DNA of 64,000 nt, from assembly GCF_003018255.1 (NCBI RefSeq), contig NZ_CP027440.1; one strand, given 5' to 3'. The position numbers and the translations under genes were made by a program. This stretch comes from Escherichia coli. Its GTDB lineage: Bacteria; Pseudomonadota; Gammaproteobacteria; Enterobacterales; Enterobacteriaceae. Below, piece after piece: positions 18,541 to 58,531 of the stretch (positions within the stretch are counted from its first letter, which is position 1; every line of letters begins with the position of its first letter). The notes under the pieces were generated by a model. That model was not told where the DNA came from. It ran no database searches and saw nothing but the letters and a program-made list of their open reading frames with translations.

Positions 18541-18558
18541 TTAAGCGCGCGCTTCAAC

Positions 18559-23049: not shown

Positions 23050-23062
23050 TGAGAGTAAATAA

Positions 23063-23094: not shown

Positions 23095-23477
23095 AAATTA
23101 ATTCTACAATATGTTTCATTGATGATGTTATTGAATTGGTGATTTCCTATCTTTCTATTGCTGATATTAATCTGAATCGGTGGAGTTTAATGATTTTAAA
23201 TATAGCCCTACAAAAATAACTCAGACTAATAAAATCATAAATCATATGCGTTGAATGGATATTATCCATATAGTGAATTTGTTGATAATGAATTCATCTG
23301 TGCTAAAAATGTTAGTTTAATAAAATATTGAAAGTGACCTGTAATAACAGTTGTTGTTGATTGAGAACAAATAAGTTTATGTGAAAAATATATAAATACA
23401 TTAGCTGGTCTTGTGTGTCATTTTATTTTTTTGTTGCTAACACAGGGATATGAACAATAACTAAAAGGGCACTTTAT

Positions 23478-25849: not shown

Positions 25850-26232
25850 TTTCGCGACTGACCATACTCCACCGCTTCTTTGAGGATCTCAACTTCCATG
25901 GTTTTCTTACCCAGCAAGCGCTGTAACTCTTTTATTTGTTTTATAGCGGCAGCCAGTTCTGAGGCAGGAACGACATCCTCTCCGGCAGCAACAGCAGTGA
26001 GACTTCCTTCCAGATATTGTTTTTTCCACTTAAACAACAGGCTGGGCTGAATACCATGCAAACGCGCCACATGGGACACCGTCATACCGGGTTCCATTGT
26101 CTGCTGAATAATGGCGATTTTTTCCTGAGGAGTTTTACGTTTACGAAGCTCCTGCCCCAGCAAAATTCCAGTCATCTCAAAATTAGCACTAGTAGACATA
26201 TATCCAAGCCTATCTCTTATTTTAAGATACAT
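25807..26232 (-). CDS. IS3-family transposase OrfA (HTH)
   Basis: recognised as IS2 InsC-like (...[10 protein letters not shown]...[13 protein letters not shown]...); overlaps orfB. Confidence 0.8.
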
Positions 26233-26263
26233 CCACTGTCTGGCGTTTCAAGGGGCCGGTTCA

Positions 26264-43542: not shown

Positions 43543-44326
43543 TTAAATCTCTACGTCGCGGTTGCAATCTTTCGAGTAAATATAGCTGAACGCTTCACCA
43601 CGCCCTACGCCATAACCAGCCTGTAAAGAATAAGCGCCCATAAAGATGTAATCGCCTTTTTTCACCGGGATCCAGTTATTGTCGAGGTTATAAACCCCCT
43701 GACCGGAAAGAATATAGGCACCGTGTTCCTGAACGTGGGTTTCGATATAACCGTGGCTGGCACCTGGTGCAAAAGAGAGGATATGCATGTTCATATCAAA
43801 ACCTAACTCTTTGGGCAGAAAATCCAGCAGAATAACATCGTCCATGCCTTCATAATGAATGCGTTCCAGTTCGCTGGCATTGCCAGAAACCAGCCACGGC
43901 GCATGACCTTCTACCGGAATATAGCGACGCTTATATAAAAAGATTTGGCTGTCTTCGGCCTGGGCGTTAACAAACGTCATTAAGGAGCCTGGCGGGCAAT
44001 AAAGATAGCCACCTTCACTTAAGGTAAATGTTTTCCCTTCGGCTTTGGCAGTGATATTTCCAGAGATCACATACAGGAACGTTTCAATGCCTTCGCCACC
44101 GAAGCCCTGTTGGTTGCCGCCGTTTTGATGCAGTGTGACCAGATAATCAACAAAAGAGGCACCCAGCTTTGGCGTGGAGAGGATTGTCGCGTCACAATTT
44201 TCAAAGCCCGGAATAATATTTTTTACCAGACCGTCTGGTGTTAACAGTGCGAAATTACCGTGTTTCACAATCGCACGGTTAGCCAGTAAATCTTCGCGGT
44301 AACCGGTGACGTTATTTAAATATCCC
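43543..44326 (-). pseudogene. allE: S-ureidoglycine aminohydrolase gene separated from its start codon/RBS by island insertion
   Basis: cupin ORF; in-frame upstream codons ..KGYLNNVTGYREDLLANRAIVKHG.. preceded by a stop and no ATG; matching GGAG-N8-ATGGGATAT found 14 kb away at 58513-58530. Confidence 0.75.
44320..44326. repeat. attL core (ATATCCC)
   Basis: identical 7-mer at 58513-58519; outer flanks reconstitute intact allC-allE junction. Confidence 0.6.
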
Positions 44327-44453
44327 TTTTATCAAATAGTGTTTTTTGCTGTTTCATAATGTTTCAGGTCGTTCATTATGTTTTTGATTATCAACGGATT
44401 TGCCATTTTTCTTGTTTCAGCTTGTTTCACGTTGTAGCGCTTTGTGCAACGAT

Positions 44454-44479
44454 CGGTGTAGTTAATGGTGTAGTCAATT
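44454..44479 (+). repeat. 26-bp direct repeat cggtgtagttaatggtgtagtcaatt, left copy (candidate Int arm-type site)
   Basis: perfect copy at 58414-58439; flanked by TGTTTCA-like motif clusters. Confidence 0.55.
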
Positions 44480-44500
44480 GTGATGACCGGAATCAAAATT

Positions 44501-45730
44501 ATGAGCAGAGCACTTAACAAACTGAGTGACACACAGCTAAGGAAAATCAACGGCACACCCGCCCAAAAAACAGCCTTTCTTAATGACGGTGGAAACCTGA
44601 GCGTCAGGCATTCAACCAGCGGCCTTTTAACCTGGTATTTCACATACAGGGCCGGAACGGGAAGAGGGACACAACCTGAACGCGTTAAGCTGGGAAATTA
44701 TCCCGATCTGAGCCTGAAAGCAGCCAGGGAAAAAGCCGCACAGTGTCGCGCATGGCTGGCTGAGGGGAAAAATCCACGCTATGAACTGAATTACACCATG
44801 CAGGAAGCGTTAAAGCCTGCAACGGTTGGCGATGCGCTCACCTACTGGCTTGAGTCGTACGCAAAGGAAAAGCGCACAGATTACGAATCACTGAAAAGCC
44901 GGATCAATAAAAACATAATCATCAAAATTGGTGCTATGCCGCTGGATAAATGCGAGCTACGGCACTGGCTGGCCTGTTTTGATCAGGTGGCAAAGCGAAC
45001 ACCTGTTACTGCCGGATTCTTGCTACAGACATGCAAACAGGCGCTTAAATTCTGCCGTAGGCGGCGCTATGCAATCAGCAACGTTCTGGACGATCTGAAC
45101 GTGGCGGACGTTGGGAAAAAACCGGATATAAGCGAACGTGTCTTAAGCACCAAAGAACTGGGCGAGTTATTGCAGGCGCTGGATAAAAAAATATTTTCTC
45201 CTTACTACGTCGCGTTAATCCGCCTCCTGATTGTCTTCGGAGCCAGGACGGTAGAACTGAGGTTATCGGAGATCAGCGAGTGGGATTTTACCGAAATGCT
45301 ATGGACCGTTCCGAAGGAGCACAGCAAAACGAAGGTTGCAATATTCCGGCCCATACCGGAAGCGATCCTGCCGTTCGTCACGCGGCTGGTGGAGCAGAAC
45401 AGGCACACGGGCTTATTACTGGGGGAAGTGAAACAGGAGGCTAGCGTATCGCAGTACGGCAGATTAGCGCACAGGAGGCTAAAACACCTTCAATGGTCAT
45501 TGCATGACATCCGGCGCACCTTTACAACGATGCTGAATGATTTGGGCGTGGATCCTCACGTCGTGGAGCAGCTTACAGGTCATCAGATGCCAGGGATGCA
45601 ACGAGTCTATAACCACTCCCGTTATCTCGATGCGAAACGTGATGCGCTGGATATGTGGACGGAGCGGTTAGGGATACTGGCGGGAGCACATGAAAACGTA
45701 ACCACGCTACCAGTAACCAGAATAAAATAA
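44501..45730 (+). CDS. int: tyrosine integrase (P4-like)
   Basis: P4-type N-terminal arm-binding region and C-terminal catalytic residues (..HDIRRTF.., ..RVYNHSRY..); adjacent to attL; start taken at MSRALNKL (ORF opens at 44480). Confidence 0.9.
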   Translation: MSRALNKLSDTQLRKINGTPAQKTAFLNDGGNLSVRHSTSGLLTWYFTYRAGTGRGTQPERVKLGNYPDLSLKAAREKAAQCRAWLAEGKNPRYELNYTMQEALKPATVGDALTYWLESYAKEKRTDYESLKSRINKNIIIKIGAMPLDKCELRHWLACFDQVAKRTPVTAGFLLQTCKQALKFCRRRRYAISNVLDDLNVADVGKKPDISERVLSTKELGELLQALDKKIFSPYYVALIRLLIVFGARTVELRLSEISEWDFTEMLWTVPKEHSKTKVAIFRPIPEAILPFVTRLVEQNRHTGLLLGEVKQEASVSQYGRLAHRRLKHLQWSLHDIRRTFTTMLNDLGVDPHVVEQLTGHQMPGMQRVYNHSRYLDAKRDALDMWTERLGILAGAHENVTTLPVTRIK

Positions 45731-46094
45731 TTTTTTTCGTGTTTTTTCAGTATGCGCATACTGGATAAGTGCACAGATACAACGTGAAACAATGTGCAAC
45801 AACGTGACACAATCATGAACAAGAGGCCAAAAAGAATACAGATTTATAAGTTACTGATTTTTATTGCTCAACTGGTTTTTTATACATTAGCGAATTACGC
45901 GTTAAAGCGTGCGAAAAAAGGCATAAAACAAGATTTTATGCCTTTGTATTAACATGAATTTAAATGATTTTATCCTGATTATTCCTCTTTCTGTAAACCA
46001 TACGACATCAACATTTGCCATTCACCACACTAGCGGGAACAATACGACACAATAAGACACCTGATGACTCTTTAAGAAACGAAAGGGGGCAATA

Positions 46095-46283
46095 GTGTTA
46101 AGCACTGATCGGTTTATACGTGAAAAAGAATGCGAAAAGCTAACAGGCCTTAGCCGCTCATGCCGCTACCGCCTGGAAAAGGCCGGACAATTCCCATCAC
46201 GTCGTAAACTTGGCGGGCGTTCTGTTGGCTGGTCTTTATCTGAGGTTTTGGCCTGGAAGGATAGCTGCAAGGCAGTTCACTAA
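46095..46283 (+). CDS. alpA: AlpA-family transcriptional regulator / excisionase-like
   Basis: 62 aa, GTG start after SD aaggggg; ..KLTGLSRSCRYRLEKAGQFP..LGGRSVGWSLSEVLAW.. fits AlpA/MerR-type HTH. Confidence 0.7.
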   Translation: MLSTDRFIREKECEKLTGLSRSCRYRLEKAGQFPSRRKLGGRSVGWSLSEVLAWKDSCKAVH

Positions 46284-46526
46284 AAAGACTGGCGGCACAC
46301 AGTCGCCACACATCCACTAATACAGAGATATAACTATGAAGATTGAATATGCGCCCGAACGTGGGCGGGGATTCGTTCGCCCTGGTGAAACTGAAAAACA
46401 ACAAAATTGGGGTTTTTCAGGCATAAAAAAAGCGGCCCCGATATGGAGCCGCCTTTCTGAACAATTAACCTGCTGCGCCTTATGTGTATGTGATCCCAAA
46501 CATAAGCACGGGGATGATAGCCGCTA

Positions 46527-46724
46527 TCAGGCTGGTGGGCAATTCCTGTTTTGTCCGTATTGCGCCGCCATTTTCGCTCGTTCAGAGCGCGAATATTTTT
46601 TTAGAAACTCATCAAGGACAAAAGCGCATGGTGCGAATCTTTCTGATTCATGCTCGAGCGCCATATTTTCGTGCTCTCTGTTCGTTTTTTGCGATGGTGT
46701 ATCGCTTGATTCTTTGTTGGTCAT
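46527..46724 (-). CDS. hypothetical small protein downstream of Arc-like gene
   Basis: 65 aa hydrophilic ORF, same strand as Arc-like gene. Confidence 0.2.
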   Translation of the reverse strand: MTNKESSDTPSQKTNREHENMALEHESERFAPCAFVLDEFLKKYSRSERAKMAAQYGQNRNCPPA

Positions 46725-46781
46725 TGTGTGTACCTGTAAAGCAATGCGCCGTAGTACCTCACACCACGGCGCTGATAGTTT

Positions 46782-46973
46782 TTATCCTTTGGGGTCTATG
46801 CCGCGCCGCTTTAGTTCAGTGCGCCCCAACTCTTTAAGCCAGTTGGCTAGGCTTATGCCGTCGCTCTGTGCTTCTTTGTCGAATTGCTCTTTTAGCTCTG
46901 GAGAAATTCGCATTCTGAATTGTGGGGATTGCCCGTCCCCTTTAGGGCTTTTATCGCGTTTGATTGTTGACAA
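46782..46973 (-). CDS. Arc/MetJ-type ribbon-helix-helix protein (candidate repressor), antisense to neighbouring island genes
   Basis: ..SPQFRMRISPELKEQFDKEAQSDGISLANWLKELGRTEL.. matches Arc N-terminal strand plus helices; start codon uncertain (TTG with SD aggtgg). Confidence 0.4.
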   Translation of the reverse strand: MSTIKRDKSPKGDGQSPQFRMRISPELKEQFDKEAQSDGISLANWLKELGRTELKRRGIDPKG

Positions 46974-47107
46974 GTGGCCACCTATTAAATTAGCCTTTCT
47001 ATTGTTAGGTGGCCACCTTAACACAAGAGCACTTAAAAAAGCAAAGCCCCGCAAGTGCCATTACCACTCGCAGGGCTTCTAACCAACAACGTAAACGAGG
47101 AGCCGTT

Positions 47108-47308
47108 ATGGTTGCCGTAAATCATATACCACACCTTGTACACACACAAACTGCCTTTGTGTGGCGTTTTCTGGCCCTGAGTGCCGGAGAATCTCAAATC
47201 ATCCACGTAACCGCCTGGACGGAACGCGAAGCGCGTAACCGTTGCCCGTCCGGTTGTGTTGCTGTATTTGCCGCCCGTATTCGTCAGGGGGAAACCTATG
47301 CACAATAA
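47108..47308 (+). CDS. small protein resembling Icd-like cell-division inhibitors of P4-type satellites
   Basis: 66 aa from ATG with SD aggag; ..FVWRFLALSAGESQIIHVTAWTEREARNRCP.. (recalled family resemblance). Confidence 0.4.
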   Translation: MVAVNHIPHLVHTQTAFVWRFLALSAGESQIIHVTAWTEREARNRCPSGCVAVFAARIRQGETYAQ

Positions 47309-47528
47309 AACCACACCGGACGCAGCAGAAGAAGCAATGCAAATACTGATACGTGCGCTCGTTGATGTTACCCACATGGTGGAGATTATGGAGAGAAAAT
47401 CACAGTCGGAGCACGACAAAAGAAAACTTAAAACAATAAAAATAATTGCCAAAAACTCGCTGATAAAAGTTACAGACATCCTTAATGAGGACATTAAAAG
47501 AATAAGGGAGAAAATTTGTGATGCATAA
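47298..47528 (+). CDS. hypothetical protein (island accessory)
   Basis: 76 aa, AT-rich, SD ggggga, overlaps neighbours. Confidence 0.4.
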   Translation: MHNKTTPDAAEEAMQILIRALVDVTHMVEIMERKSQSEHDKRKLKTIKIIAKNSLIKVTDILNEDIKRIREKICDA

Positions 47529-47748
47529 AATCCCTTTTGAAGTATTAATCCACTCTGAAAACGCATTAATTAAAGCACGCGAAATGAATGCGTTGTTAAT
47601 TAAATTAATTGAAGTGCCGGAAGGTGGTGAGGAATCAGGTGTATTAATGTTTGCAGCCATTCAGACATTACTATCGCCTGTTATTGATGAACTGGATAAG
47701 GCAATGGCAATTCACGAAAATAATAACGCGCCCCACACCGGAGAATAA
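47518..47748 (+). CDS. hypothetical protein (island accessory)
   Basis: 76 aa, AT-rich, start overlaps previous stop. Confidence 0.4.
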   Translation: MMHKIPFEVLIHSENALIKAREMNALLIKLIEVPEGGEESGVLMFAAIQTLLSPVIDELDKAMAIHENNNAPHTGE

Positions 47749-47753
47749 AAATA

Positions 47754-48053
47754 ATGAAACTTAAATATTCTGGCTTAACTGCCAGTGGCAAAACTCGCAC
47801 TAAATTCATGCGCGGTGATATTTACCGCGACCAGTACGGCGGCACGGTAATGATTAAGGGCGTGGAGGAACGGCGCGTAACTTACCGCCGTGAAGGTTAC
47901 GAATATGATTGCGTGATGCCCGTTTATCAGTTCGACCGTGATTTTTCTCTGGTGCAGGCAGCGCAACGCAGCAAGCCCACCAGCAGGGAGAAAGCACGCG
48001 CCAATATTCAGGAAATAAAAAAGATGCTTAACGTATTCAGGGGTAAAAAATGA
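47754..48053 (+). CDS. hypothetical protein (island accessory)
   Basis: 99 aa basic protein, stop overlaps primase start. Confidence 0.4.
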   Translation: MKLKYSGLTASGKTRTKFMRGDIYRDQYGGTVMIKGVEERRVTYRREGYEYDCVMPVYQFDRDFSLVQAAQRSKPTSREKARANIQEIKKMLNVFRGKK

Positions 48054-49804
48054 AACTGGCACCGAACGTAAAACAGCAGTCACGCGGCATAAAACACAAA
48101 GAAACAGAAGTCATTATTTTTGCGGGTAGTGATGCCTGGTCACACGCAAAACAATGGCAGGAACATGACGCGCGTATGGCCGGAGATAATGAGCCTCCTG
48201 TGTGGCTTGGGGAGCAGCAGTTATCAGAACTGGATAAGCTGCAAATTGTGCCGGAAGGCAGAAAATCCGTGCGCATATTCAGGGCCGGATATCTTGCACC
48301 AGTAATGATAAAGGCGATTGGTCAAAAGCTGGCGGCGGCTGGTGTACAGGATGCAAATTTTTATCCTGAGGGTATGCACGGCAAGGAGGTGCAGAACTGG
48401 CGCGAATACCTGGCCCGTGAACGCCAGAATCTTTCTGATGGTCTGGTCATTGAGCTTCCGGTAAAGCAAAAGGCGCAACTTTCGCAGATGGCGGACAGTG
48501 AGCGCGCGCAGCTGCTTGCCGATCGCTTTGATGGCGTTTGCGTACATCCTGAAAGTGAAATTGTTCACGTATGGCGCGGCGGGGTATGGTGTCCGGTCAG
48601 CACAATGGAACTTAGCCGCGAAATGGTGGCGATCTATTCAGAGCACAGGGCCACTTTCAGCAAGCGCGTAATCAATAACGCCGTGGAAGCGTTAAAAGTT
48701 ATTGCCGAACCAATGGGCGAGCCGTCCGGCGATTTGCTGCCGTTCGCCAATGGTGCGCTTGACCTGAAAACGGGGGAATTTTCCCCGCACACGCCGGAGA
48801 ACTGGATCACCACGCACAACGGCATTGAGTACACGCCACCAGCACCAGGGGAGAATATCCGCGACAACGCGCCAAACTTTCATAAATGGCTTGAGCACGC
48901 AGCCGGAAAAGACCCGCGCAAGATGATGCGTATATGTGCCGCGCTGTACATGATTATGGCGAACCGGTACGACTGGCAGATGTTTATTGAGGCCACCGGA
49001 GACGGCGGGAGCGGTAAAAGTACATTCACACACATAGCCAGCCTTCTGGCAGGGAAACAGAACACGGTAAGCGCTGAAATGACATCGCTTGATGATGCTG
49101 GTGGACGTGCGCAGGTTGTCGGGAGTCGTCTTATCGTCCTGGCTGACCAGCCGAAATATACAGGCGAAGGAACGGGCATCAAGAAAATCACGGGCGGCGA
49201 CCCCGTGGAAATTAACCCGAAATATGAGAAGCGTTTTACGGCGGTAATCAGGGCGGTGGTGCTGGCTACCAACAATAACCCGATGATATTCACCGAACGG
49301 GCCGGAGGTGTGTCACGTCGTCGCGTAATTTTCCGTTTCGACAATATCGTCAGTGAGGCCGAAAAAGACAGGGAGCTACCGGAAAAGATTGCGGCTGAAA
49401 TCCCTGTCATTATCCGCCGATTGCTGGCGAACTTTACCGACCCTGAGAAGGCACGGGCTTTACTACTGGAACAGCGTGACGGTGATGAAGCTCTGGCAAT
49501 AAAGCAACAGACGGATCCGGTTATTGAGTTTTGCCAGTTCCTGAATTTTCTGGAGGAAGCACGCGGCCTGATGATGGGCGGCGGTGGCGATTCAGTGAAG
49601 TACACGACCAGGAACAGCCTTTACCGCGTCTATCTGGCGTTTATGGCATACGCAGGCAGGAGCAAACCGCTAAACGTGGCTGAGTTCAGCAAGGCCATGA
49701 AGCCAGCGGCGAAAGTTTACGGGCATGAATATATTACGCGAAAAGTTAAGGGAGTAACGCAGACCAACGCAATTACAACAGACGATTGCGACGCGTTTTT
49801 ATAA
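48050..49804 (+). CDS. primase-helicase replication protein (P4 alpha-like C-terminal NTPase)
   Basis: 584 aa, Walker A GDGGSGKST, Walker B-like LIVLAD. Confidence 0.85.
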   Translation: MKLAPNVKQQSRGIKHKETEVIIFAGSDAWSHAKQWQEHDARMAGDNEPPVWLGEQQLSELDKLQIVPEGRKSVRIFRAGYLAPVMIKAIGQKLAAAGVQDANFYPEGMHGKEVQNWREYLARERQNLSDGLVIELPVKQKAQLSQMADSERAQLLADRFDGVCVHPESEIVHVWRGGVWCPVSTMELSREMVAIYSEHRATFSKRVINNAVEALKVIAEPMGEPSGDLLPFANGALDLKTGEFSPHTPENWITTHNGIEYTPPAPGENIRDNAPNFHKWLEHAAGKDPRKMMRICAALYMIMANRYDWQMFIEATGDGGSGKSTFTHIASLLAGKQNTVSAEMTSLDDAGGRAQVVGSRLIVLADQPKYTGEGTGIKKITGGDPVEINPKYEKRFTAVIRAVVLATNNNPMIFTERAGGVSRRRVIFRFDNIVSEAEKDRELPEKIAAEIPVIIRRLLANFTDPEKARALLLEQRDGDEALAIKQQTDPVIEFCQFLNFLEEARGLMMGGGGDSVKYTTRNSLYRVYLAFMAYAGRSKPLNVAEFSKAMKPAAKVYGHEYITRKVKGVTQTNAITTDDCDAFL

Positions 49805-49809
49805 TTTTT

Positions 49810-50050
49810 TGTAAAAGCCCTCTACCCCATCTACCTGAATGAAGTAAACGCATATTATTCAACATGATAAGTGGGTAGAGGGCTAGGTAGAAGGCTAATA
49901 AAAGCTCTCTACCCCTTCTACCTGATTTTATCAGTTTCAGGTAGCAGGGTAGACGGCAGGTAGAGGAGCCCAAAAAGCTATCTACCCGCTGAAAGCCGCG
50001 CCATTACTGACATGATGAGCATTCGGGTAGATGGGTAGAGGGGGGGGAGG
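49810..50050. repeat. iteron cluster, putative island origin of replication
   Basis: at least 10 copies of GGTAGA/TCTACC-containing units in both orientations, e.g. cctctaccccatctacctga, ctctctaccccttctacctga, gggtagatgggtagaggg. Confidence 0.6.
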
Positions 50051-50082
50051 CACAACTAAAAACTTTTTAAACGAGGGGGGGG
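50040..50082 (+). repeat. two G8 homopolymer tracts just upstream of ORF 50090
   Basis: G8 at 50040-50047 and 50075-50082, the second 7 nt before the ATG. Confidence 0.4.
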
Positions 50083-50089
50083 AAAATAA

Positions 50090-50404
50090 ATGCGCATACA
50101 TCAAAATCACTTAACAAATATGCCAGCCGAAAACATGAATCAGGGGCGACAAATGACCAAAATTCGCAGAGACAGAACACAGGCAAAATATAAAGCGTTA
50201 GACATGACAGAGCTTTCCTTAAAGGTGGCAATCAAAGCGATAGACCACCACACACGGGCAGGATACGCGAAGGAACATCCCGACCTGATAAGCGCATTCA
50301 TGACCACGGCGGCGGCAAACTTTGCCACGTTGACAGAACGTGAGATTGCCGAAGCGGAACAGGTAACAACCATCAACGTTAAAACCGGAGAGGTGGAATC
50401 ATGA
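50090..50404 (+). CDS. hypothetical protein (island accessory)
   Basis: 104 aa ORF, stop overlaps SSB-like start. Confidence 0.35.
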   Translation: MRIHQNHLTNMPAENMNQGRQMTKIRRDRTQAKYKALDMTELSLKVAIKAIDHHTRAGYAKEHPDLISAFMTTAAANFATLTEREIAEAEQVTTINVKTGEVES

Positions 50405-50811
50405 CAGCACAGATAGCCGCTTACGGGCGGCTGGTGGACGACCCGCAGGTAAAACAGACCAGCAAGGGCACACCGATGACGCTGGTTCGTATGGCGGTAT
50501 CGCTGCCATGCAGCCAGGCACATGACGGACAGGCGACGTTATGGTTATCGGTTATCGCATTTGGCAAACAGGCCGATTTCCTGGCTAAACATCAAAAAGG
50601 CGATGTTGCCAGCGTATCCGGCACGATGCAGGTAAGCCAGTGGACCGGACAGAACGGGGAAACGCGGCGGGGGTATCAGGTTATTGCAGACAGCGTAATC
50701 AGTGCCCGCGCGGCACGTCCAGGCGGGAACAGACGCAAAACCACAGGCACACAGGGTAATCAGCCACCAGCGGGAGGCGATGACCCTTACGGTGACGGTA
50801 TTCCGTTCTGA
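50401..50811 (+). CDS. SSB-like single-stranded DNA-binding protein
   Basis: 136 aa, OB-fold-like N-terminus, Gly-rich linker, acidic tail ..DDPYGDGIPF like SSB DDDIPF. Confidence 0.55.
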   Translation: MTAQIAAYGRLVDDPQVKQTSKGTPMTLVRMAVSLPCSQAHDGQATLWLSVIAFGKQADFLAKHQKGDVASVSGTMQVSQWTGQNGETRRGYQVIADSVISARAARPGGNRRKTTGTQGNQPPAGGDDPYGDGIPF

Positions 50812-50821
50812 GGGGGTGACG

Positions 50822-51070
50822 ATGGTACATGACCGCATAGCGGAGGAACTCGAGGCAAAAGGCTTTTACCGGAGGGCGTCGGCGCGATGGGGTGAAGTCA
50901 TGCAACTGGTGGAGACAGACAAGGAACGGCATCAGGTTACGATGCGACGGCTGGAATGTTCCAGGAAGGCACAGAGGCCACCGGAGCCGCCAACGGAGAA
51001 CTACGCAGACCTGAGAAATGCAGTAAATCGCACTTACGCAGACATGGGGCTGAGCAAATTAGCAGAGTAG
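50822..51070 (+). CDS. PerC-family-like transcriptional regulator
   Basis: 82 aa from internal ATG with SD gaggggg; ..LEAKGFYRRASARWGEVM..TDKERHQVTMRRLEC.. (recalled PerC-like pattern). Confidence 0.4.
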   Translation: MVHDRIAEELEAKGFYRRASARWGEVMQLVETDKERHQVTMRRLECSRKAQRPPEPPTENYADLRNAVNRTYADMGLSKLAE

Positions 51071-51141
51071 GAATATCAGAACCACACCACGCAGCCGGAG
51101 CAATCCGGCTTTTTGTTATTTTTTGTAAATTATTTGTTCGT

Positions 51142-51158
51142 GGTTGTTCCACGTTGTT
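51142..51158 (+). promoter_or_regulatory. copy of TTGTT(C/T)CACGTTGT motif upstream of capsid operon
   Basis: gttgttccacgttgttcac; similar motifs near 44423, 45782 (inverted) and 58385. Confidence 0.35.
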
Positions 51159-51374
51159 CACTGAGCGGATCGGCATATTTTACCCGAACTGAATCATGAT
51201 TATTCTCGCCCGTGGTGCCAGGACGCTGGGGCCACTTTCCCGCCTGTTAATGTGCTCGCCAATATTCATTACCAGGCGGGAAAACGATCGGTGCGATTGC
51301 TGATTTCCTTATGAAAAACGGTTGAGTGTTTGCCGCGTCCTGGAGTTCCTTACTTAACCCCAGGACTTTTTTTT

Positions 51375-52532
51375 ATGCCGAGAATAATCGAATTACGCCA
51401 GCAGAAAACCGCCATTAAAAATCAGATGCGCGACATGCTGGAGAACGCTGAAAAAGAAAACCGCAGTCTTAACGATGCTGAGGGCGCAAAATTTGACGAA
51501 TTACGCGCTAAAGCTGAATCCCTCGATAAAGACATTTCCCGCCTTGAAGCCATTGCAGACGAAGAGCGCAGCAAGCCAGGTAAAAGCAGCCAGACCACTG
51601 ACCCCGCAGAACTACGCAGCTACATTCTGACAGGTGAAACCCGCGCATTAAGTACAGGCGTTCCCGCTGATGGTGGTTATACCGTTATCCCCGAACTGAA
51701 CACCGAAATCATGCGAATGCTGGCGGATGAATCCACCATGCGCCGCATCTGTACCGTGAAAAAAATCAGCAGCAACGAGTTTAAGCAGCTTGTTTCCGCT
51801 GGCGGTGCGACCGTTAACCACGGTGAAGAGGGTAAGGCACGCGAACAGACCAGCACCCCGCAGATTAACGAGGTGAGCATTAAGCTGTATCCGGTCTATG
51901 CGTACCCGCGCACCACACAGGAAATCGTGGATTTTTCCGATGTGGACATCCTTTCATGGCTGACGGGTGAGATTGGCGACACCTTCACGGAAACCGAAGA
52001 AAGCGATCTGGTTGTGGGCGACGGTGACAAAAAAGCAAAAGGTTTTTTATCCGTACCCCGTGCAGAGAAGAACGACAAAGAGCGTGATTTTGGTACGTTG
52101 CAGGTAATTAAACCTTCCGAATCTCTGGCGTGGACATCTGCGGACCCGCTGATCGACCTGAAATTTGCATTACGTAAAAAATACCGCAAAAACGCGGTCT
52201 GGGTGGTTAACTCCACGACGGCGGCAAAACTCCAGAAGGTGAAGAACGCGAACGGTGATTACATCTGGCGTGACCGTTTACAGGCGGGTGATCCTGATAC
52301 GTTGCTGGGCCTTCCGGTCGAATATCTGGAGTTTATGCCTGATAACGTTATTGCCCTGGGTGACTTCAAACGCGGTTACTACATTGTTGATCACGAAACA
52401 GGTGTTCGCACCAGACCGGACAACCTCACAGAGCCGGGCTTCATCAAAATTTTCACGCAGAAATATTTAGGCGGTGGCGTGGTGGATTCGAACGCGATCA
52501 AGATTCTGGAACTGCCACAGGACGACGATTAA
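51375..52532 (+). CDS. major capsid protein, HK97 fold, coiled-coil N-terminal delta domain
   Basis: coiled-coil N-terminus then HK97-like capsid core; start taken at MPRIIELRQQK. Confidence 0.85.
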   Translation: MPRIIELRQQKTAIKNQMRDMLENAEKENRSLNDAEGAKFDELRAKAESLDKDISRLEAIADEERSKPGKSSQTTDPAELRSYILTGETRALSTGVPADGGYTVIPELNTEIMRMLADESTMRRICTVKKISSNEFKQLVSAGGATVNHGEEGKAREQTSTPQINEVSIKLYPVYAYPRTTQEIVDFSDVDILSWLTGEIGDTFTETEESDLVVGDGDKKAKGFLSVPRAEKNDKERDFGTLQVIKPSESLAWTSADPLIDLKFALRKKYRKNAVWVVNSTTAAKLQKVKNANGDYIWRDRLQAGDPDTLLGLPVEYLEFMPDNVIALGDFKRGYYIVDHETGVRTRPDNLTEPGFIKIFTQKYLGGGVVDSNAIKILELPQDDD

Positions 52533-52571
52533 CAGCATACAGAAGGGGCTTAAAAGCCCCTTTAGTGTTTT

Positions 52572-53144
52572 ATGGGTGAAAAAATTATGAAGAGTATGGA
52601 AATCCGGTCATCGGAAATCACCACCAGCGGAGCCGGTACGCTGACGGGCTACGTTGTTCGCTGGGATAAGCTTTCAGAACTGTTATGGGGTGAGTTTTAC
52701 GAAAAATTCCAGCGGGGGGCGTTTACTGAATGGCTTGCGGCGGGTAATGACGTTCGCGGCCTGTATGAGCATGACCACAGCATGTTACTGGGGCGCACCC
52801 GTTCCGGCACGCTGAAACTGGAAGAGGACGAAACAGGGTTACGCTTTGAACTGACCCCACCGGATACCAGTACAGGGCGCGACGTTATCGAACTGGTTAA
52901 GCGTGGGGACATCTCGGGGATGAGCTTTGGCTTTCGCTCCCGTAAGGATGTATGGGATACCACAACAGATCCATGCGTGCGCACCGTGCTGGTGGCGGAA
53001 CTGTACGAAATTACCGTTACATCGGTACCGGCTTACCCCGATTCCGGCGTGGAGCTGGCCCGCCGTTCCCTGTATGAGCAGCACCCCGAAAAAATGCCGC
53101 GTGCGGATAATCGCCGCTGGTGGGTGGATTTAGCGGGGGTGTGA
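52572..53144 (+). CDS. prohead protease (HK97 gp4 family)
   Basis: 190 aa, ..LYEHDHSMLLGRT.. and ..ISGMSFGF.. Confidence 0.8.
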   Translation: MGEKIMKSMEIRSSEITTSGAGTLTGYVVRWDKLSELLWGEFYEKFQRGAFTEWLAAGNDVRGLYEHDHSMLLGRTRSGTLKLEEDETGLRFELTPPDTSTGRDVIELVKRGDISGMSFGFRSRKDVWDTTTDPCVRTVLVAELYEITVTSVPAYPDSGVELARRSLYEQHPEKMPRADNRRWWVDLAGV

Positions 53145-53145
53145 T

Positions 53146-54357
53146 ATGTGGCCTTTCAGAAGAAAAAAAGAGCAGCGCAGCATGACGCTTGATAAGTTTA
53201 TGGCGCTGGCTGGCACATCGAACACGGGGGCGGGTGAGTACGTATCATCGGGGACAGCGGAATCACTGCCCGCCGTCATGAACGCCGTGACGGTCATCTC
53301 TGAGGCGGTGGCTACCATGCCGTGTTACCTGTACCTGGTACGCAATGAGAAGGGGAAGGAGGCCCGCGAGTGGCTTGATTCTCATCCGGTCGATCACATC
53401 CTCAACGAGCGCCCGAACGCGTGGCAGACTCCCTACCAGTTTAAGCGAATGATGATCCGCCACTGCCTGTTAAACGGTAATGCTTATGCGGTGATTCAGT
53501 GGGGGCGTGATGGTTTTCCGGTGGCTTTACATCCTTACCCGCCGCAGTCGGTGAACGTGGAGCAGACAGGTGATCATAACTGGCGCTACTGCATCACTGA
53601 CGCCTACACCGGAAACACCCGCAACTATTTACCGTGGGAGGTTCTCCACCTTCGTTACTCCACGGATGACGGTTTTATGGGGCGCTCACCTGTAACCATC
53701 TGCCGCGAATCGCTGGGGCTTGGGCTGGCCCAACAACGCCACGGCGCGAGCGTGATGCGTGATGGCATGATGGCGGCAGGGGTTATCACGTCAGGCGAAT
53801 GGCTGGACGGCGTGAAGGGCAAACAGGCATTAGCCGCACTGGAACGCTACAAAGGGGCCAGAAACGCCGGAAAAACGCCCATCCTTGAAGGGGGGATGAG
53901 CTATCAGCAGCTGGGCATGAGTAATCAGGATGCCGAATGGCTGGCCTCCCGTCGCTTCACCATTGAAGACATCGCCCGAATGTTCAACGTCTCGCCGATT
54001 TTTTTGCAGGAATACAGCAACAGCACCTACAGCAACTTCAGCGAGGCAAGCCGCGCATTTCTCACCATGACGATGCGCCCGTGGCTGGCGAACTTTGAGC
54101 AGCAGATAAAAAACGCCCTGCTGGTGGCCTCGCCTGTACCTGGTATCCGGTATCAGGTGGAGTTTGACAGCGCGGACCTGTTACGGGCCACACCTGGCGA
54201 ACGCTTTGCCACCTATGAACGCGGCATCAAATCCGGCGTTATGTGCCCGAACGAAGCCCGCGAACGTGAAGGGCTGTCCCCGCGTGATGGTGGTGATGAG
54301 TTCAGCCAGGCATGGAAACAGGAAGTAAAAATCAGCGAGGGAGAAAAACCGGAATGA
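53146..54357 (+). CDS. portal protein (HK97 family)
   Basis: 403 aa, follows protease, precedes head-completion genes. Confidence 0.8.
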   Translation: MWPFRRKKEQRSMTLDKFMALAGTSNTGAGEYVSSGTAESLPAVMNAVTVISEAVATMPCYLYLVRNEKGKEAREWLDSHPVDHILNERPNAWQTPYQFKRMMIRHCLLNGNAYAVIQWGRDGFPVALHPYPPQSVNVEQTGDHNWRYCITDAYTGNTRNYLPWEVLHLRYSTDDGFMGRSPVTICRESLGLGLAQQRHGASVMRDGMMAAGVITSGEWLDGVKGKQALAALERYKGARNAGKTPILEGGMSYQQLGMSNQDAEWLASRRFTIEDIARMFNVSPIFLQEYSNSTYSNFSEASRAFLTMTMRPWLANFEQQIKNALLVASPVPGIRYQVEFDSADLLRATPGERFATYERGIKSGVMCPNEAREREGLSPRDGGDEFSQAWKQEVKISEGEKPE

Positions 54358-54692
54358 ACATAGGGCGACTGCGTGACAGGATAACGATTCAGACCCTGAA
54401 ACAGACCAGGGATATAACCGGCGAAATACTCGAAACGTGGGAGGACGGTCACACACTCTGGGCAAGCGTGAACATGGTCAGCAGCAAGGAGGCCATTTCA
54501 TCGGGCGCAGAGCTGGCGATTGGTACCGTAAGGATCTGGATACGGTACCGGAAGGACATCAACGCCACCTGCCGGATAAAGGTCAGTACGGGGCCGCTGG
54601 CGGGGCGTGTACTGAATATCATCGGGCAGCCGCTGCCGGATGCCGCCAGGACACGCCTTGAAATTCTTTGTCGTGAGGGCGCGGAAAAATGA
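54354..54692 (+). CDS. head-tail adaptor / head closure protein
   Basis: start MNIGRLRDRITIQ overlaps portal stop; ..IWIRYR.DI.. pattern. Confidence 0.65.
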   Translation: MNIGRLRDRITIQTLKQTRDITGEILETWEDGHTLWASVNMVSSKEAISSGAELAIGTVRIWIRYRKDINATCRIKVSTGPLAGRVLNIIGQPLPDAARTRLEILCREGAEK

Positions 54693-54985
54693 CAGAAGAA
54701 CTTATCACCCTGGAAGAAGTGAAACTCCATTGCCGCATCGATGGCGACGATGAAGACCAGTTAATCAGCGGATACATTGCCGCATCGCTTGAGGCGTGCC
54801 AGATACACATAGGCAGGCGCTTTGATGACGGGCTGGAGTTCACGCCAGCCATAAAGATTGGCTGCATGATGTTTATCGCTCACCTGTATGAAAATCGCCA
54901 GATTGTCGCGGATAACGCAAAAACACGCGTACCCATGACGATAGGCGCACTCTGGACGGCTTACCGTGATGTGGGGGTGTACTGA
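54689..54985 (+). CDS. gp6-like head-tail connector protein
   Basis: 98 aa; ..ITLEEVKLHCRIDGDDEDQLISGYIAAS.. Confidence 0.65.
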   Translation: MTEELITLEEVKLHCRIDGDDEDQLISGYIAASLEACQIHIGRRFDDGLEFTPAIKIGCMMFIAHLYENRQIVADNAKTRVPMTIGALWTAYRDVGVY

Positions 54986-55425
54986 TGCCGTGGCAACCAT
55001 TAAGACGATGCACAGAACCAGGCTGTAACAGGCGCGTTAAATCCGGCAAGTGTGAGGAGCACAGGCGGGCGGCATGGCGTGCAGAGGATGCCAGACGAGG
55101 ACACCGCCGCGCGCGTGGATATTCCAGACAGTGGGACAAATACCGCGCCATGTATCTGAGTAAAAACCCGTTATGCGTGCGATGCCTTGAGAAGGGGATA
55201 TATACGCCCGCCGTGGTGGTGGATCACATTATCCCGATTAATGGCGGTGATGATGTTCTCTTCTGGCCCGAATGGAACCATCAACCATTGTGCCAGGCGT
55301 GTCATAACCAGAAAACGAAATGGCTTGATCCGGCAACAAAAAGCAAGCGTGCCGCAGGTGGATTTCGTGAAGAGGAAGAACGGGCTGCTAACCGCAATAA
55401 CTGGATGTATGACGCTGATGAATGA
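54985..55425 (+). CDS. HNH endonuclease (packaging-associated)
   Basis: Cys-rich zinc motifs and ..VVDHIIPINGG..NHQPLCQACHNQKT.. HNH core, next to terminase. Confidence 0.85.
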   Translation: MPWQPLRRCTEPGCNRRVKSGKCEEHRRAAWRAEDARRGHRRARGYSRQWDKYRAMYLSKNPLCVRCLEKGIYTPAVVVDHIIPINGGDDVLFWPEWNHQPLCQACHNQKTKWLDPATKSKRAAGGFREEEERAANRNNWMYDADE

Positions 55426-55591
55426 GCGGGAACAAAACCGCCTTATCCGTGGACTTATAAGGCAGCGTGACGCATGGAAGACACAGGAAACAGGGCATAA
55501 AGATAAAGCGTCAGGACGCGCAGAACGCATCACAGCGAAGCGATTAACCGACCGTGACCGCGAGGTTATGGAATGTTTCCGCAATCGCTGA
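55409..55591 (+). CDS. possible small ORF overlapping HNH 3' end
   Basis: 60 aa basic peptide (MTLMNEREQNRLIRGL...), no recognisable domain. Confidence 0.2.
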   Translation: MTLMNEREQNRLIRGLIRQRDAWKTQETGHKDKASGRAERITAKRLTDRDREVMECFRNR

Positions 55592-55713
55592 TGAGGCTGT
55601 ATGACGGGGTGGGGGGCGTTTTCAGGACAAACCCGACCCCGCCGGGCACCGAACGCCTCCTCAAATTTTTATGCACGGGAATTTTTTGAAAAATAATCTG
55701 GCGAAAAATAAGC

Positions 55714-56070
55714 ATGGCAAGACCACCGAAAGCCCCCGCCTACCTGGATGATATCGCCGTGAAGCAGTGGCGGGAAAAATCTAGGCAGCTTGCGGAACGG
55801 GGAGACCTGACCCCCGCCGACTGGAGCAATCTGGAACTGTATTGTGTCAACTACTCCATTTACCGGAAAGCCGTTGCAGACCTTGCGGCGCGCGGGTTCA
55901 GCATTGTTAACAGTCAGGGCGGCGAGAGCAGAAACCCCGCATTAAGCGCAAAATCCGACGCTGAAAGAGTGATGATAAAAATGGCCTCTTTGCTCGGTTT
56001 TGACCCGATAAGCCGCCGTAAAAATCCACCGGAAACAGAAGAAGAGGACGAGCTTGACCGCCTGGAATAA
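55714..56070 (+). CDS. terminase small subunit (P27-like)
   Basis: 118 aa; ..DLTPADWSNLELYCVNYSIY..LLGFDPISRRK.. fits P27-family TerS. Confidence 0.7.
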   Translation: MARPPKAPAYLDDIAVKQWREKSRQLAERGDLTPADWSNLELYCVNYSIYRKAVADLAARGFSIVNSQGGESRNPALSAKSDAERVMIKMASLLGFDPISRRKNPPETEEEDELDRLE

Positions 56071-57715
56071 GTACGCAGAAGACGTAAAAACGGGCAAAAT
56101 TCCGGCCTGTAAACGGCTGAAACAGGCCGTTAAACGGTACTTTTCGGACCTTGAAAGCCCCCTTTACACGTTCGATCGTGAGGTTGTGGAGCGGTTTATT
56201 GCCTTTTCCAGGGTGTGCCCGCACGTAAAAGGGCCGATGCGTGGCAGACCCATTGAGCTGGAGCCGTGGCAGCAGTTCGCCTTTGCGTGCATCCTCGGCT
56301 TTAAGGTTAAGGCCACCGGACGGCGCAAATACACGAGCGCCTTTATCGAAGTGCCGCGCAAAAATGCGAAATCCACGACCGCCGCGATTCTGGCTAACTG
56401 GTTTCTGATTATGGAGAACGGGCAGCAGGATATTTACACCGCAGCGGTGAGCCGTGACCAGGCGCGGATCGTTTTTGATGATGCGCGTCAGATGTGCCTT
56501 TTATCCCGACCGTTACGCAGGCGGGTGAATATTCAGGCCCACAAGGTGATGCACCCGAAAAGCAACAGCCTGTTAAAGCCGCTGGCAGCAAAAGCGGCAA
56601 CCATCGAGGGAACAAACCCCAGCCTTTCCATCGTGGACGAATACCACCTACACCCCGATAACGGCGTTTATTCCGCGCTTGAGCTGGGGATGGGCGCACG
56701 TCCCGAAGGGCTGTTATTTGCCATTACCACATCGGGCAGTAACGTCGTTTCAACCTGTAAACAGCACTATGATTATTGCTGCCAGATCCTGGACGGCGAA
56801 GAGGTCAACGATTCAATTTTTGTGCTGATTTACGAGCTGGACGACGAAAACGAGGTTGATGATCCGGCGATGTGGATAAAGGCTAACCCTAACATCGATG
56901 TTTCCGTGGATCGTGAAAAACTGGCCTCAACCATCCAGAAAGCGCGGGGTATTCCGTCGCAATGGGTGGAGATGATGACAAAGCGATTTAATATCTGGTG
57001 CCAGGGGGCTACCCCGTGGATGGGTAACGGCGCATGGGCTGAGTGTGCCGGAACGTTCACGGAGGAAGATTTACACGGGCAGGAGTGTTACGCGGGGCTG
57101 GACTTATCATCAACCAGCGATATTTCCAGCGTGTGCTATGCCTTTCCGGTCGGTAAAAATATCATGCTGGTTTCCCGTCATTATCTGCCGGAGTTCCAGC
57201 TACAGAACCCCGCCAATAAAAACCGCGCTGTCTATCGCCAGTGGGCTAAAGCGGGCTGGATACGCACAACGCCAGGTGACTGCATTGATTACGACCGGAT
57301 CAGAGATGACATCATGCAGGATGCGGAGAAATTTAATATCAGGCTGGTGGGCTTTGATACGTGGAACGCCACGCATCTCAGGACGCAATTACAGGGGGCT
57401 GGTTTTGAGGTGGAGCCGTTCCCGCAAACCTACCTCAGATTCAGTCCGGCGGCGAAATCGTTCGAAGTTTTTGTTAACCGCAGGGTGATTGTGCATCGTG
57501 GCGATCCGGTGTTGTCCTGGTCGATGAGTAACGTCGTGATGCAGAGTGACGCGAACGCCAATATCAAGCCGAACAAGAAAAAATCACCGAACAAGATAGA
57601 CCCGAGCGTAGCGGCGCTGATGGCGTTTGGTACATTCCAGGCAGAGCATGAGGATTTTGCTTTTGATATAAGCGACAGCCACCGCCAGAAACTGGAAGAA
57701 TTTAGCGGGGTGTAA
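56054..57715 (+). CDS. terminase large subunit
   Basis: 553 aa, ATPase N-terminus and nuclease C-terminus, overlaps terS. Confidence 0.9.
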   Translation: MTAWNKYAEDVKTGKIPACKRLKQAVKRYFSDLESPLYTFDREVVERFIAFSRVCPHVKGPMRGRPIELEPWQQFAFACILGFKVKATGRRKYTSAFIEVPRKNAKSTTAAILANWFLIMENGQQDIYTAAVSRDQARIVFDDARQMCLLSRPLRRRVNIQAHKVMHPKSNSLLKPLAAKAATIEGTNPSLSIVDEYHLHPDNGVYSALELGMGARPEGLLFAITTSGSNVVSTCKQHYDYCCQILDGEEVNDSIFVLIYELDDENEVDDPAMWIKANPNIDVSVDREKLASTIQKARGIPSQWVEMMTKRFNIWCQGATPWMGNGAWAECAGTFTEEDLHGQECYAGLDLSSTSDISSVCYAFPVGKNIMLVSRHYLPEFQLQNPANKNRAVYRQWAKAGWIRTTPGDCIDYDRIRDDIMQDAEKFNIRLVGFDTWNATHLRTQLQGAGFEVEPFPQTYLRFSPAAKSFEVFVNRRVIVHRGDPVLSWSMSNVVMQSDANANIKPNKKKSPNKIDPSVAALMAFGTFQAEHEDFAFDISDSHRQKLEEFSGV

Positions 57716-57728
57716 TGAGGTCAGCAGC

Positions 57729-58010
57729 ATGACAGAAGCCGAAATACTGCGATTAATCCGCCGCGTCTCTGGAATCAGCCAGCAGGCTGACGAACAGACC
57801 ACGCAGCCGGACAGCGTGACAGCCGAAAATTATGCGCGTGTTGTTGCTGAGGTGATGCGCCGTGATGGTATCCAGCTTAATGATGCGGATATGCGCGACA
57901 TACGGATCCGCGTTCTTGAAATGCTGGCCTACAATCGCCGTGTAGAGATGTACAGGGAGAAAGAGAAAATTACGTACAACTGGAAGAAGCCGGAGCGGTT
58001 ACGGCGGTAA
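57729..58010 (+). CDS. hypothetical protein, last gene of island
   Basis: 93 aa ORF right after terL. Confidence 0.35.
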   Translation: MTEAEILRLIRRVSGISQQADEQTTQPDSVTAENYARVVAEVMRRDGIQLNDADMRDIRIRVLEMLAYNRRVEMYREKEKITYNWKKPERLRR

Positions 58011-58413
58011 CGTGTTGATTTAAAGGCGGCTCAATTTTGAGCCTCGTAACTGGTTGATATTTCCGGCAACCTCAATTTGAGGAGAGCGGAAACATCATCC
58101 CTCACATTCTGAATGGTCATAATGACCACGCAGGCCATCGAGGCAACCATAGCGATCATCGTTACGGTTGGAGCTTTCCGCCATTGGTGGAAAAGGTGCA
58201 CATCTGGATCATCATTACGGTGATCAAGGGTATGTAAAACCCACCAGCCTGATTAAAGGTTAACCGGAAAAAAAATCCGGTAGCCCCGTTATGGGGATCC
58301 CCATATCGACATTAACGCCCCTCATGAATTGGTGCGCTTCCCCCTGGAAAGATTACCCGCCTGTATATTTCTTGTGTCTATTTGTTCCACGTTGTTTCAT
58401 ACAGTGCACCGAA

Positions 58414-58439
58414 CGGTGTAGTTAATGGTGTAGTCAATT
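58414..58439 (+). repeat. 26-bp direct repeat, right copy (candidate Int arm-type site)
   Basis: identical to 44454-44479. Confidence 0.55.
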
Positions 58440-58512
58440 TGCGATTTTTGGCACTTTTTGTAGTGCGGGTTATTTAATTAAATCAATGTGTTATTGAAAA
58501 TAAGTTATAGAT

Positions 58513-58519
58513 ATATCCC
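58513..58519. repeat. attR core (ATATCCC) carrying native allE RBS and ATG
   Basis: minus strand reads TAA(allC stop)-GGAG-N8-ATG GGA TAT then island sequence. Confidence 0.6.
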
Positions 58520-58531
58520 ATTTATAACTCC

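Follow-up and report, generated by a model that had tools for sequence, protein, structure and literature searches.

The window analysed here is a stretch of 64,000 nucleotides from Escherichia coli (RefSeq assembly GCF_003018255.1, contig NZ_CP027440.1), and the subject is the attachment (att) site and the repeated control-region motifs of a satellite integrated within it, which carries genes for a tyrosine integrase (int) and a small AlpA-family protein (alpA). The closest described systems are phage P4 and the phage-inducible chromosomal islands (PICIs). The attP/Int/Vis module of P4 is said to have been described by Pierson and Kahn in 1987 and by Cali et al. in 2004; in the latter study, Vis reportedly bound two boxes between int and the attP core and regulated late promoters. 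In the P4 record (NC_001609), tandem doublets of a 12-bp 'attP arm sequence repeat' are annotated to either side of the 20-bp core. Read in the direction of int, the doublets are GTGGGGGCACAA AAGGGGGCATAT and TTGGGGGCATAA TTGGGGGCATCT, the second of which ends 16 nt before the int ATG, and a TCCG array phased at 10 bp is located between the core and the P' doublet.

Helper-embedded PICIs (HE-PICIs) contain a 'doubled motif', tgTGTATTGCantgTGTATTGCa, as co-oriented copies 81 ± 2 bp upstream and 132 ± 2 bp downstream of the attP centre; the motif was reported to be absent from other PICIs, and its binder was left open between the arm domains of Int, AlpA and an unknown protein (PMC10111431, Tommasini, Mageeney and Williams 2023). 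Recombination directionality factors (RDFs) of the 186 Apl, P2 Cox, lambda Xis and KplE1 TorI type are small (winged) helix-turn-helix proteins that act in an att arm, on 3-7 direct repeats at intervals of one helical turn (PMC7498355), and Apl, Cox and Vis also bind at promoters (PMC7498355; PMC11963761). In KplE1, the promoter of the integrase gene intS overlaps attL, and both Int and the RDF repress it (PMC2951348). Unlike such repressor-type dual RDFs, the AlpA of PICIs was described as an activator and master inducer: in the relative EcCICFT073 it activates its own promoter, and its over-expression leads to int-dependent excision and replication (PMC6092414). Six E. coli attB sites were reported for the EcCIEDL933 family of capsid-forming PICIs (cf-PICIs), whose gene layout, in the searched passages of the preprint, is that of the window element, with no tail genes; neither arm repeats nor AlpA operators are described in those passages (Alqurainy et al., bioRxiv 10.1101/2022.09.08.507074).

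Ends, target site and gene content of the island

An empty-site query, consisting of window positions 44127-44326 fused to 58520-58719, was searched in 5426 complete E. coli genomes. Because this query, which spans the allE-allC junction, matched as one contiguous piece in 5313 of the 5426 (with 100% identity in one), the island was defined as the DNA from 44327 to 58519, an insertion of 14.2 kb. The short block ATATCCC is present at both junctions and is single in the uninterrupted target. As comparison with the empty sites shows, strand exchange takes place within this 7-bp block or beside it at either junction. The insertion does not involve a tRNA gene. The junctions and the two recombination genes are given below; comparison loci carry L numbers.

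44320-44326, + strand: ATATCCC, left copy of the 7-bp duplication (attL), probable overlap or crossover region, placed by empty-site comparison and location of the block copies
58513-58519, + strand: ATATCCC, right copy (attR), placed by empty-site comparison; the L001 junctions are identical
44501-45730, + strand: int, tyrosine integrase, with PF13356 Arm-DNA-bind_3 at residues 8-95 (E = 2.7e-17) and PF00589 at residues 214-375 (E = 5.2e-16)
46095-46283, + strand: alpA, 62 aa, PF05930 Phage_AlpA (E = 5.6e-18), 47% identity to P4 Vis

The insertion changed the allE start codon from ATG to AAG, so that its complement reads CTT instead of CAT (44320-44330, 58513-58522; read from the sequence), with the last C of the left ATATCCC and positions 44327-44328 taking the place of the original complement. 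The allC and allE genes are now 14.2 kb apart, and the allD-allC-allE gene run is split. Set against the EcCIEDL933 family as presented in the searched part of the preprint, the window copy at allE/allC stands out in destroying the allE start codon. The longest allE open reading frame left encodes 241 aa, and the PGAP coding sequence in the equivalent strain L001 is 744 nt long (247 aa).

Outside the left copy of the perfect 26-bp repeat described below lie 127 bp, and outside its right copy 73 bp, of island DNA with no counterpart in the empty site, and the 26-mer itself is absent there. Arm sequences of the island are present in about 780 of the 5426 genomes. A pre-existing 'solo' outer element (the left 153 bp and the right 80 bp) as the target was considered and rejected: none was found in the E. 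coli genomes, the sole match to cover most of the query, in H34, being an odd one in two pieces.

The element is a satellite of the cf-PICI type. It contains int, alpA and a primase together with the full set of HK97-type capsid and packaging genes, and has no genes for tails or lysis (NCBIfam, PHROG and the annotation of L001 and L004, which are near-identical to the window element and were used for the gene layout). The content comprises int, alpA, P4-family primase, ssb, a PerC-like gene, HK97 capsid, protease, portal, connectors, HNH, terS and terL, and an Rfam scan of the island gave no matches. Arm-binding N-terminal and catalytic domains are both present in the one integrase, as is characteristic of heterobivalent enzymes, and the AlpA protein belongs to a PHROG family named 'excisionase and transcriptional regulator', in keeping with a small RDF of the AlpA family.

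Doublets and phased arrays in the attachment site

The 26-mer CGGTGTAGTTAATGGTGTAGTCAATT is identical at 44454-44479 and 58414-58439, as the original prediction had stated. It consists of two tandem 12-bp units, GGTGTAGTnAAT, with no other exact copies of the unit anywhere in the 64 kb, and it lies within a 75-nt direct repeat (44405-44479 and 58365-58439, 80% identity). The features of the two arms, and the related arrays inside the island, are listed below with their distance from the crossover centre where they belong to attP. IHF denotes integration host factor.

44340-44385, + strand: core-proximal TGTTT(C)A / GTTCA units at about 10-bp spacing, P' arm (+17 to +62), probable AlpA sites
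44388-44400, + strand: near-consensus IHF-like site TATCAACGGATTT, one mismatch to WATCAANNNNTTR, between the two P'-arm arrays (+65 to +77), read from the sequence
44412-44451, + strand: P'-arm array of four TTGT units at 10 bp, TTGTTTCAGC TTGTTTCACG TTGTAGCGCT TTGTGCAACG (+89 to +128), probable AlpA (RDF) sites
44455-44478, + strand: P'-arm doublet GGTGTAGTTAAT GGTGTAGTCAAT, left 26-mer copy (+132 to +155), probable Int arm-type sites
45779-45822, - strand: array 2, five inverted TTGT units at 10 bp, between the int stop and alpA
51134-51165, + strand: array 3, TTGTTCGTGG TTGTTCCACG TTGTTCACTG, ahead of the HK97-type capsid operon, at about 210-260 bp from the capsid ATG
58372-58401, + strand: P-arm array TTGTGTCTAT TTGTTCCACG TTGTTTCATA (-144 to -115), highly conserved in the right arms of relatives
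58415-58438, + strand: P-arm doublet GGTGTAGTTAAT GGTGTAGTCAAT, right 26-mer copy (-101 to -78), probable Int arm-type sites
58481-58493, + strand: perfect match to the IHF consensus, AATCAATGTGTTA, on the core side of the P-arm doublet (-35 to -23)

The P' doublet ends 22 nt before the int ATG (44501, +178). In attP the two doublets are spaced 233 bp from start to start in five elements at three sites and in the natural circle described below, and 232 bp in L246, so that in seven reconstructed or natural attPs the repeats stand at fixed distances from a core of different sequence. The two doublet copies differ in several relatives, and no doublet was found outside the att arms in the elements scanned.

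The motif clusters in the non-coding control regions proved to be real and above chance, and the suggestion was therefore not refuted by motif frequency. Seven matches to the 14-mer TTGTTYCACGTTGT were counted over the 64 kb when up to 2 mismatches were allowed; the mean in shuffled sequence was 1.14, and none of 100 shuffles reached 7. All 7 matches fall into four clusters, at 44412-44435 (+), 45779-45812 (-), 51144-51157 (+) and 58382-58395 (+); the second and third are the longer copies, inverted after int and upstream of the capsid operon, to which the original prediction had pointed. Arrays of at least three TTGT at exact 10-bp spacing number four in the window (shuffle mean 0.01) and coincide with these clusters. 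TGTTTCA has 22 matches against 9.4 expected, 7 of them in or beside the island arms. With 3-5 direct units per array, one helical turn apart, the arrays in the att arms have the form of RDF sites. They occupy both arms, unlike those of dual-purpose RDF systems. In array 2 the AACAA pentamers are invariant across 6 aligned elements while the bases between them vary, and array 3 is present upstream of the HK97 capsid module in 19 of 28 elements checked (window counted).

The number of IHF-consensus matches over the whole window is not above chance, and three of the four fall in the last 520 bp of the island. The match at 58481-58493 is conserved in the right arms of relatives even beside differing cores. 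Two more perfect matches are found at 58008-58020 and 58047-58059 (-), about 500 bp inside the right end.

The arrangement closely resembles that of P4. In both, Int has an N-terminal Arm-DNA-bind_3 domain and int adjoins att and reads away from it; since P4 also presents a core-side array, then a doublet, then int, the order is the same as in the window. The distance from the P' doublet to the int ATG is 16 nt in P4 and 22 nt in the window, and the doublets are spaced 209 bp and 233 bp apart, respectively. The sequences themselves are unrelated, P4 having TTGGGGGCATnn units and TCCG phasing; Int shares only 25% identity with its P4 counterpart (E = 9e-14), and AlpA, as listed, is 47% identical to Vis. 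The P4 core is 20 bp long and lies within a tRNA-Leu gene, whereas the window type has a 7-11 bp block, with relatives at several protein-coding or intergenic targets. Unlike P4, the window also has arrays in the P arm, after int and before the capsid operon.

The geometry of the window doublets falls within the HE-PICI range, with a motif end at -79 and a motif start at +132. The HE-PICI motif sequence tgTGTATTGCantgTGTATTGCa itself was not found, the window doublet being GGTGTAGTTAATGGTGTAGTCAAT; the core of the unit is TGTATTGC in HE-PICIs and GGTGTAGT in the window, and a 12-bp period is common to both. In HE-PICI-motif loci from IMG/VR, the motif is located 13-65 nt upstream of an int whose product is 40-46% identical to that of the window, and repeated change of target by the integrase clade is a shared trait. 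A de novo search for phased 5-mers in HE-PICI arms found none, nor were there exact phased TTGT arrays, and HE-PICIs therefore add no point to the covariation with AlpA presented below.

Relatives were gathered by DNA patterns from the E. coli collection and IMG/VR; a search of genome contigs with integrase peptide patterns gave no confirmed relative, the patterns being too strict. Outer arm sequences of identical type accompany integrases of 84-95% aa identity at other loci, and the same ends are found within different short duplications at five other target sites, as follows.

L002: inside caiT, 16001-27128, duplication ATAAAAACA
L003 and L004: between roxA and phoQ, duplication GGACATAT
L244: inside the transposase gene of ISEc45 (IS110 family), about 13465-24300
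L245, more distant: between cspD and clpS
L246, more distant: between rcnR and thiM

What varies between lineages is some 25 bp around the overlap, between the P-side IHF site and the core; the distant relatives also diverge somewhat at the extreme left end. These alignments indicate that the integrase clade switches target by changing about 25 bp around the overlap, and that the P4-like arm architecture is otherwise rigid. The host genes are split and not preserved by L002 in caiT and by L244 in the ISEc45 transposase gene.

The IMG/VR contig L216 (11,098 nt) has a 119-bp direct terminal repeat and so represents a related PICI assembled as a circle of about 10,979 bp. Its junction reads, in order, right arm, ATAACAGCA, TTTTATCA, left arm, and both doublets flank this junction 233 bp apart. 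L216 is a natural attP of the predicted form.

Covariation with Int and AlpA, and alternative explanations

The doublet sequence was compared with the N-terminal segment of the integrase in each locus, and the alleles pair as follows.

Int segment LSVRHST(S/N)GLL: doublet unit GGTGTAGT(T/C)AAT, 17 loci, both arms, no exception
Int segment LSVKYLTSGKL: doublet unit GGTGTAGTCACT / (C/T)ATT, 9 loci, both arms, no exception
Int segment LEIKHSKGGKL (L246): doublet unit TGTGTGGTCAGT, 1 locus
HE-PICI type, Int segment LS(V/I/A)R(V/I)S: doublet unit TGTATTGC

The two alleles within the family are concordant in 26 of 26 loci, and the two further alleles are concordant as well. The two in-family doublet alleles have nearly identical right-arm flanks and differ mostly in the last four bases of each unit. 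Elements with either allele share an AlpA of 98-100% identity (window compared with L002, L151 and others), and L245 retains the GGTGTAGT doublet with an AlpA of only 55% identity. Because the doublet allele changes under a constant AlpA and persists with a divergent one, the doublet tracks Int and not AlpA, and for this reason the 26-bp doublets are most likely arm-type sites of Int. The KYL-type unit GTAGTCACTGG includes AGTCACT, which forms the core of the lambda arm-type consensus (C/A)AGTCACTAT.

The arrays follow AlpA. With the AlpA helix SR(S/T)CRYRLEK (type A), the units are of the form TTGT-T/G-Y-C-A, and position 7 is C in 84-85% (TTGTTYCA); with the helix (C/S)RTTRYE(L/M)EK (type B), the form is TTGTTCG, and position 7 is G in 62-100%. 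Regardless of the doublet allele, the unit type follows the AlpA allele near the core as well as in both arms, and the core-proximal P'-arm units become TGTTCG in elements with AlpA type B. The TTGT arrays are thus probable, predicted operators of AlpA. As a model for such binding, the P. aeruginosa AlpA antiterminator (PMC9371919) was set aside; its DNA contacts are made by residues 126-142, beyond the end of the 62-aa AlpA.

Taken together, these results point to a P4-style attP with Int-bound doublets and AlpA-bound arrays in a cf-PICI with its crossover at ATATCCC, a reading that we consider moderately probable as a whole. The binding model is itself inferred, since its basis is anatomy, covariation and homology. 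Several observations weigh against it. The independent events are few: there are two Int alleles in the family and two outside it, and two AlpA classes. In the excised circle, the stretch from the P arm through the core and P' arm to int and alpA is continuous, and linkage could therefore mimic part of the covariation. The specificity difference between the AlpA types is not clean, as TTGTTCG units also occur in type A arrays (L001, L004). Array 2 is inverted, with about 190-270 bp between it and the alpA promoter-like sites downstream. Array 3 goes with the capsid module, even in company with an HE-PICI-type integrase and a distant AlpA (L065, L094); its version in L001 is 'type B-like', and its sequence follows the capsid lineage. 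A scan for sigma-70-like promoters found none in the P' arm or beside array 3, no published AlpA operator for PICIs was found in the searchable literature, and in EcCICFT073 the activity of Pint was unchanged by AlpA (PMC6092414).

The idea that array 3 is adapted to the AlpA allele was accordingly weakened, since this array follows the capsid module. At the 2-mismatch threshold, array 3 is absent from L002, L003 and L244, which have a lambda-like capsid/decoration module. In L065 (about 3530-4100, reverse-complement coordinates), two consecutive AlpA-like proteins are encoded after an HE-PICI-type integrase gene, and the TTGT array upstream of its capsid genes is the same as in L001.

Five other explanations of the repeats were weighed. 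On the first, the reading ascribed to the original prediction, which had put the repeat at both island ends, the 26-bp repeat would mark the att core, with the island ends at 44454 and 58439 and the flanking TGTTTCA-like repeats serving as Int arm-type sites. The repeat is perfect, direct and near both ends, and int begins 22 nt after its left copy, but this explanation is almost certainly wrong: it is refuted by the empty site, contiguous in 5313 of 5426 genomes without the 26-mer or the sequences outside it, and those outer sequences accompany relatives at other loci, the L216 circle keeps two doublets around a different junction, and the copies are not identical in several relatives. The predicted mixture of integrase arm-type sites and regulator operators did survive; the roles had to be reassigned, the 26-mer being the probable Int site and the TGTTTCA/TTGTTYCAC motifs the probable regulator sites. 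Functionless repeats left by the copying of 75 bp from one arm to the other would account for the 75-nt block that the arms share at 80% identity. Such an origin is very hard to credit for repeats whose 233-bp geometry is constant across different cores and cargo, whose array cores are invariant while spacers vary, whose doublet alleles change in concert in both arms, and whose architecture recurs in P4 with unrelated sequences. Binding of the doublet by AlpA or another accessory protein, rather than by Int, appears improbable. The binder was left open in the HE-PICI study (PMC10111431), and tandem direct repeats would also suit winged helix-turn-helix proteins; against this, the doublet allele changes while AlpA remains 98-100% identical, the doublet persists with the 55% identical AlpA of L245, it never occurs away from the att arms, and P4 annotates the equivalent units as attP arm repeats.

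For the arrays, it had also been proposed that they resemble the iterons bound by P4 alpha, and TTGTTYCAC arrays might then serve the island primase or replication initiator in the manner of the P4 ori/crr type-1 repeats TGTTCACC. A superficial sequence resemblance, the position of the P4 crr beside attP and a shared N-terminal domain of about 125 aa in the Rep proteins (43-99% identity) speak for this. The likeness did not hold up, and the explanation is highly improbable: the octamer TGTTCACC does not occur between 44327 and 58519, array type is independent of the Rep N-domain and of Rep class, a better origin candidate exists at 49812-49838/49899-49925, and the TGTTCACC pairs of L245 are apart from its arrays. 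Window-type arrays occur with N-domains of 43% (L002) and 62-63% identity (L003/L244), and TTGTTCG arrays with 69-70% (L245-L247). An earlier argument against iterons, that the replication proteins are unrelated, was weakened by the shared domain and was replaced by this similarity matrix. Finally, the TTGT arrays could be bound not by AlpA but by Int through a second class of site or by a host protein that recognizes direct repeats phased at 10-11 bp, such as a response regulator of the OmpR/PhoP type or, at weak boxes, DnaA. AlpA is supported indirectly and array 3 follows the capsid module instead of the AlpA allele; in addition, TGTTTCA and TTGTTCCAC loosely resemble OmpR/PhoP half-sites and, with 2 mismatches, a DnaA box. 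This explanation is unlikely but carries some weight. Arrays at all positions switch together between the AlpA classes, the TTGTTCG type is without the CAC needed by a DnaA box, and the location of arrays between core and int matches that reported for the Vis-binding boxes of P4.

Further features of the control and replication regions were recorded. Two of them lie beside the internal arrays.

45748-45763, unstranded: 16-bp perfect palindrome CAGTATGCGCATACTG, int 3' flank
51093-51118, + strand: terminator-like hairpin after the PerC-like open reading frame, directly upstream of array 3

The palindrome was confirmed where it had been predicted, just after the int stop, and is kept in 4 of 6 aligned elements (window counted), extra ACAAC units replacing it in the other two. 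A role as int terminator or conserved operator was rejected: it has no T-run, is absent from L004 and L244 and was not called in the terminator scan. A hairpin, GGCATAAAA-CAAGA-TTTTATGCC followed by TTTGTATT, is located at 45920-45950, between array 2 and the alpA promoter-like sites; it is terminator-like, was not called by the scan, and has mostly invariant columns in the 6-element alignment. The P arm has another terminator-like hairpin, GCACTTTTTGTAGTGC (58451-58466), flanked by the doublet and the IHF site; relatives retain it in part, and it could act as a stop for late-operon read-through into att.

The N-terminal domain of about 125 aa is shared by island replication proteins that include P4-type primase, RepA-type helicase and DUF927 proteins. 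It is encoded at 48050-48424 in the window (Rep residues 1-125), at 18773-19140 in L003 and at 19880-20370 in L002, with 62% and 40-43% identity, and may serve all of them for docking or origin recognition. A direct repeat of 27 nt, TAAAAGC(C/T)CTCTACCCC(A/T)TCTACCTGA, is found at 49812-49838 and 49899-49925 (93% identity), 8 nt after the primase stop, and is a plausible candidate for the replication origin, better than the TTGT arrays. In L245, an inverted TGTTCACCACTGTTC pair containing TGTTCACC (18357-18371 (+), 18487-18501 (-)) is located just after the primase, apart from the TTGTTCG arrays.

Proposed mechanism and implications

Under the reading of Int-bound doublets and AlpA-bound arrays, the island was inserted at the allE start codon by a heterobivalent tyrosine integrase of the P4 type, and its two ends jointly make up an attP of about 300 bp. 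The four 12-bp units would be bound by the N-terminal Arm-DNA-bind_3 domains of an Int tetramer, while the IHF-like sites between the doublets and the core would supply bends in both arms. AlpA would polymerise cooperatively, head-to-tail, on the arrays spaced at one helical turn (10 bp), in the manner of Xis, Apl, Cox and Vis (PMC7498355; PMC11963761). Once turned on by a helper phage, it would bend the arms so that Int-mediated excision is favoured, and it would also act at the promoter region of alpA itself and at that of the late (capsid) operon. With the start of int 22 nt beyond the P' doublet, auto-regulation of int by Int and AlpA bound at this doublet and array is also probable. The excised circle would read AAGTTATAGAT-ATATCCC-TTTTATCAAATAG and would keep both doublets, 233 bp from start to start. 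This mechanism is not conceptually new and follows classical lambda/P4 intasome logic.

A further generalization is put forward more tentatively, as a possibility somewhat short of an even chance. It comprises a readable 'arm code', in which the Int segment RHSTSGLL, KYLTSGKL, IKHSKGGKL or HE-PICI R(V/I)S would be matched to positions 5-12 of the doublet unit, and a single AlpA that would couple excision, its own induction and expression of the capsid operon through arrays spaced by the helical turn. In unrelated AT-rich viral contigs (IMG/VR L127, L129, L133-L135, L146, L147, L149, L155, L156 and L196), GGTGTAGTAA(A/T/C)T was seen as 2-3 tandem 12-bp copies in non-coding DNA. Units of the GGTGTAGTAA type may be arm sites for integrases far beyond the enterobacterial PICIs.

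The fixed island ends and crossover matter for polymerase chain reaction assays of excision, for attP plasmids and for deletion mutants. Sites that were described without an assigned binder, such as the HE-PICI doubled motif, or that are undescribed in the searchable literature, such as the AlpA operators of PICIs, now receive assignments that can be tested. If the arm code is true, the binder of the HE-PICI doubled motif would be settled, and, together with the coupling through AlpA, the site-switching integrases of PICIs would become retargetable and their induction circuit rewirable from sequence alone.

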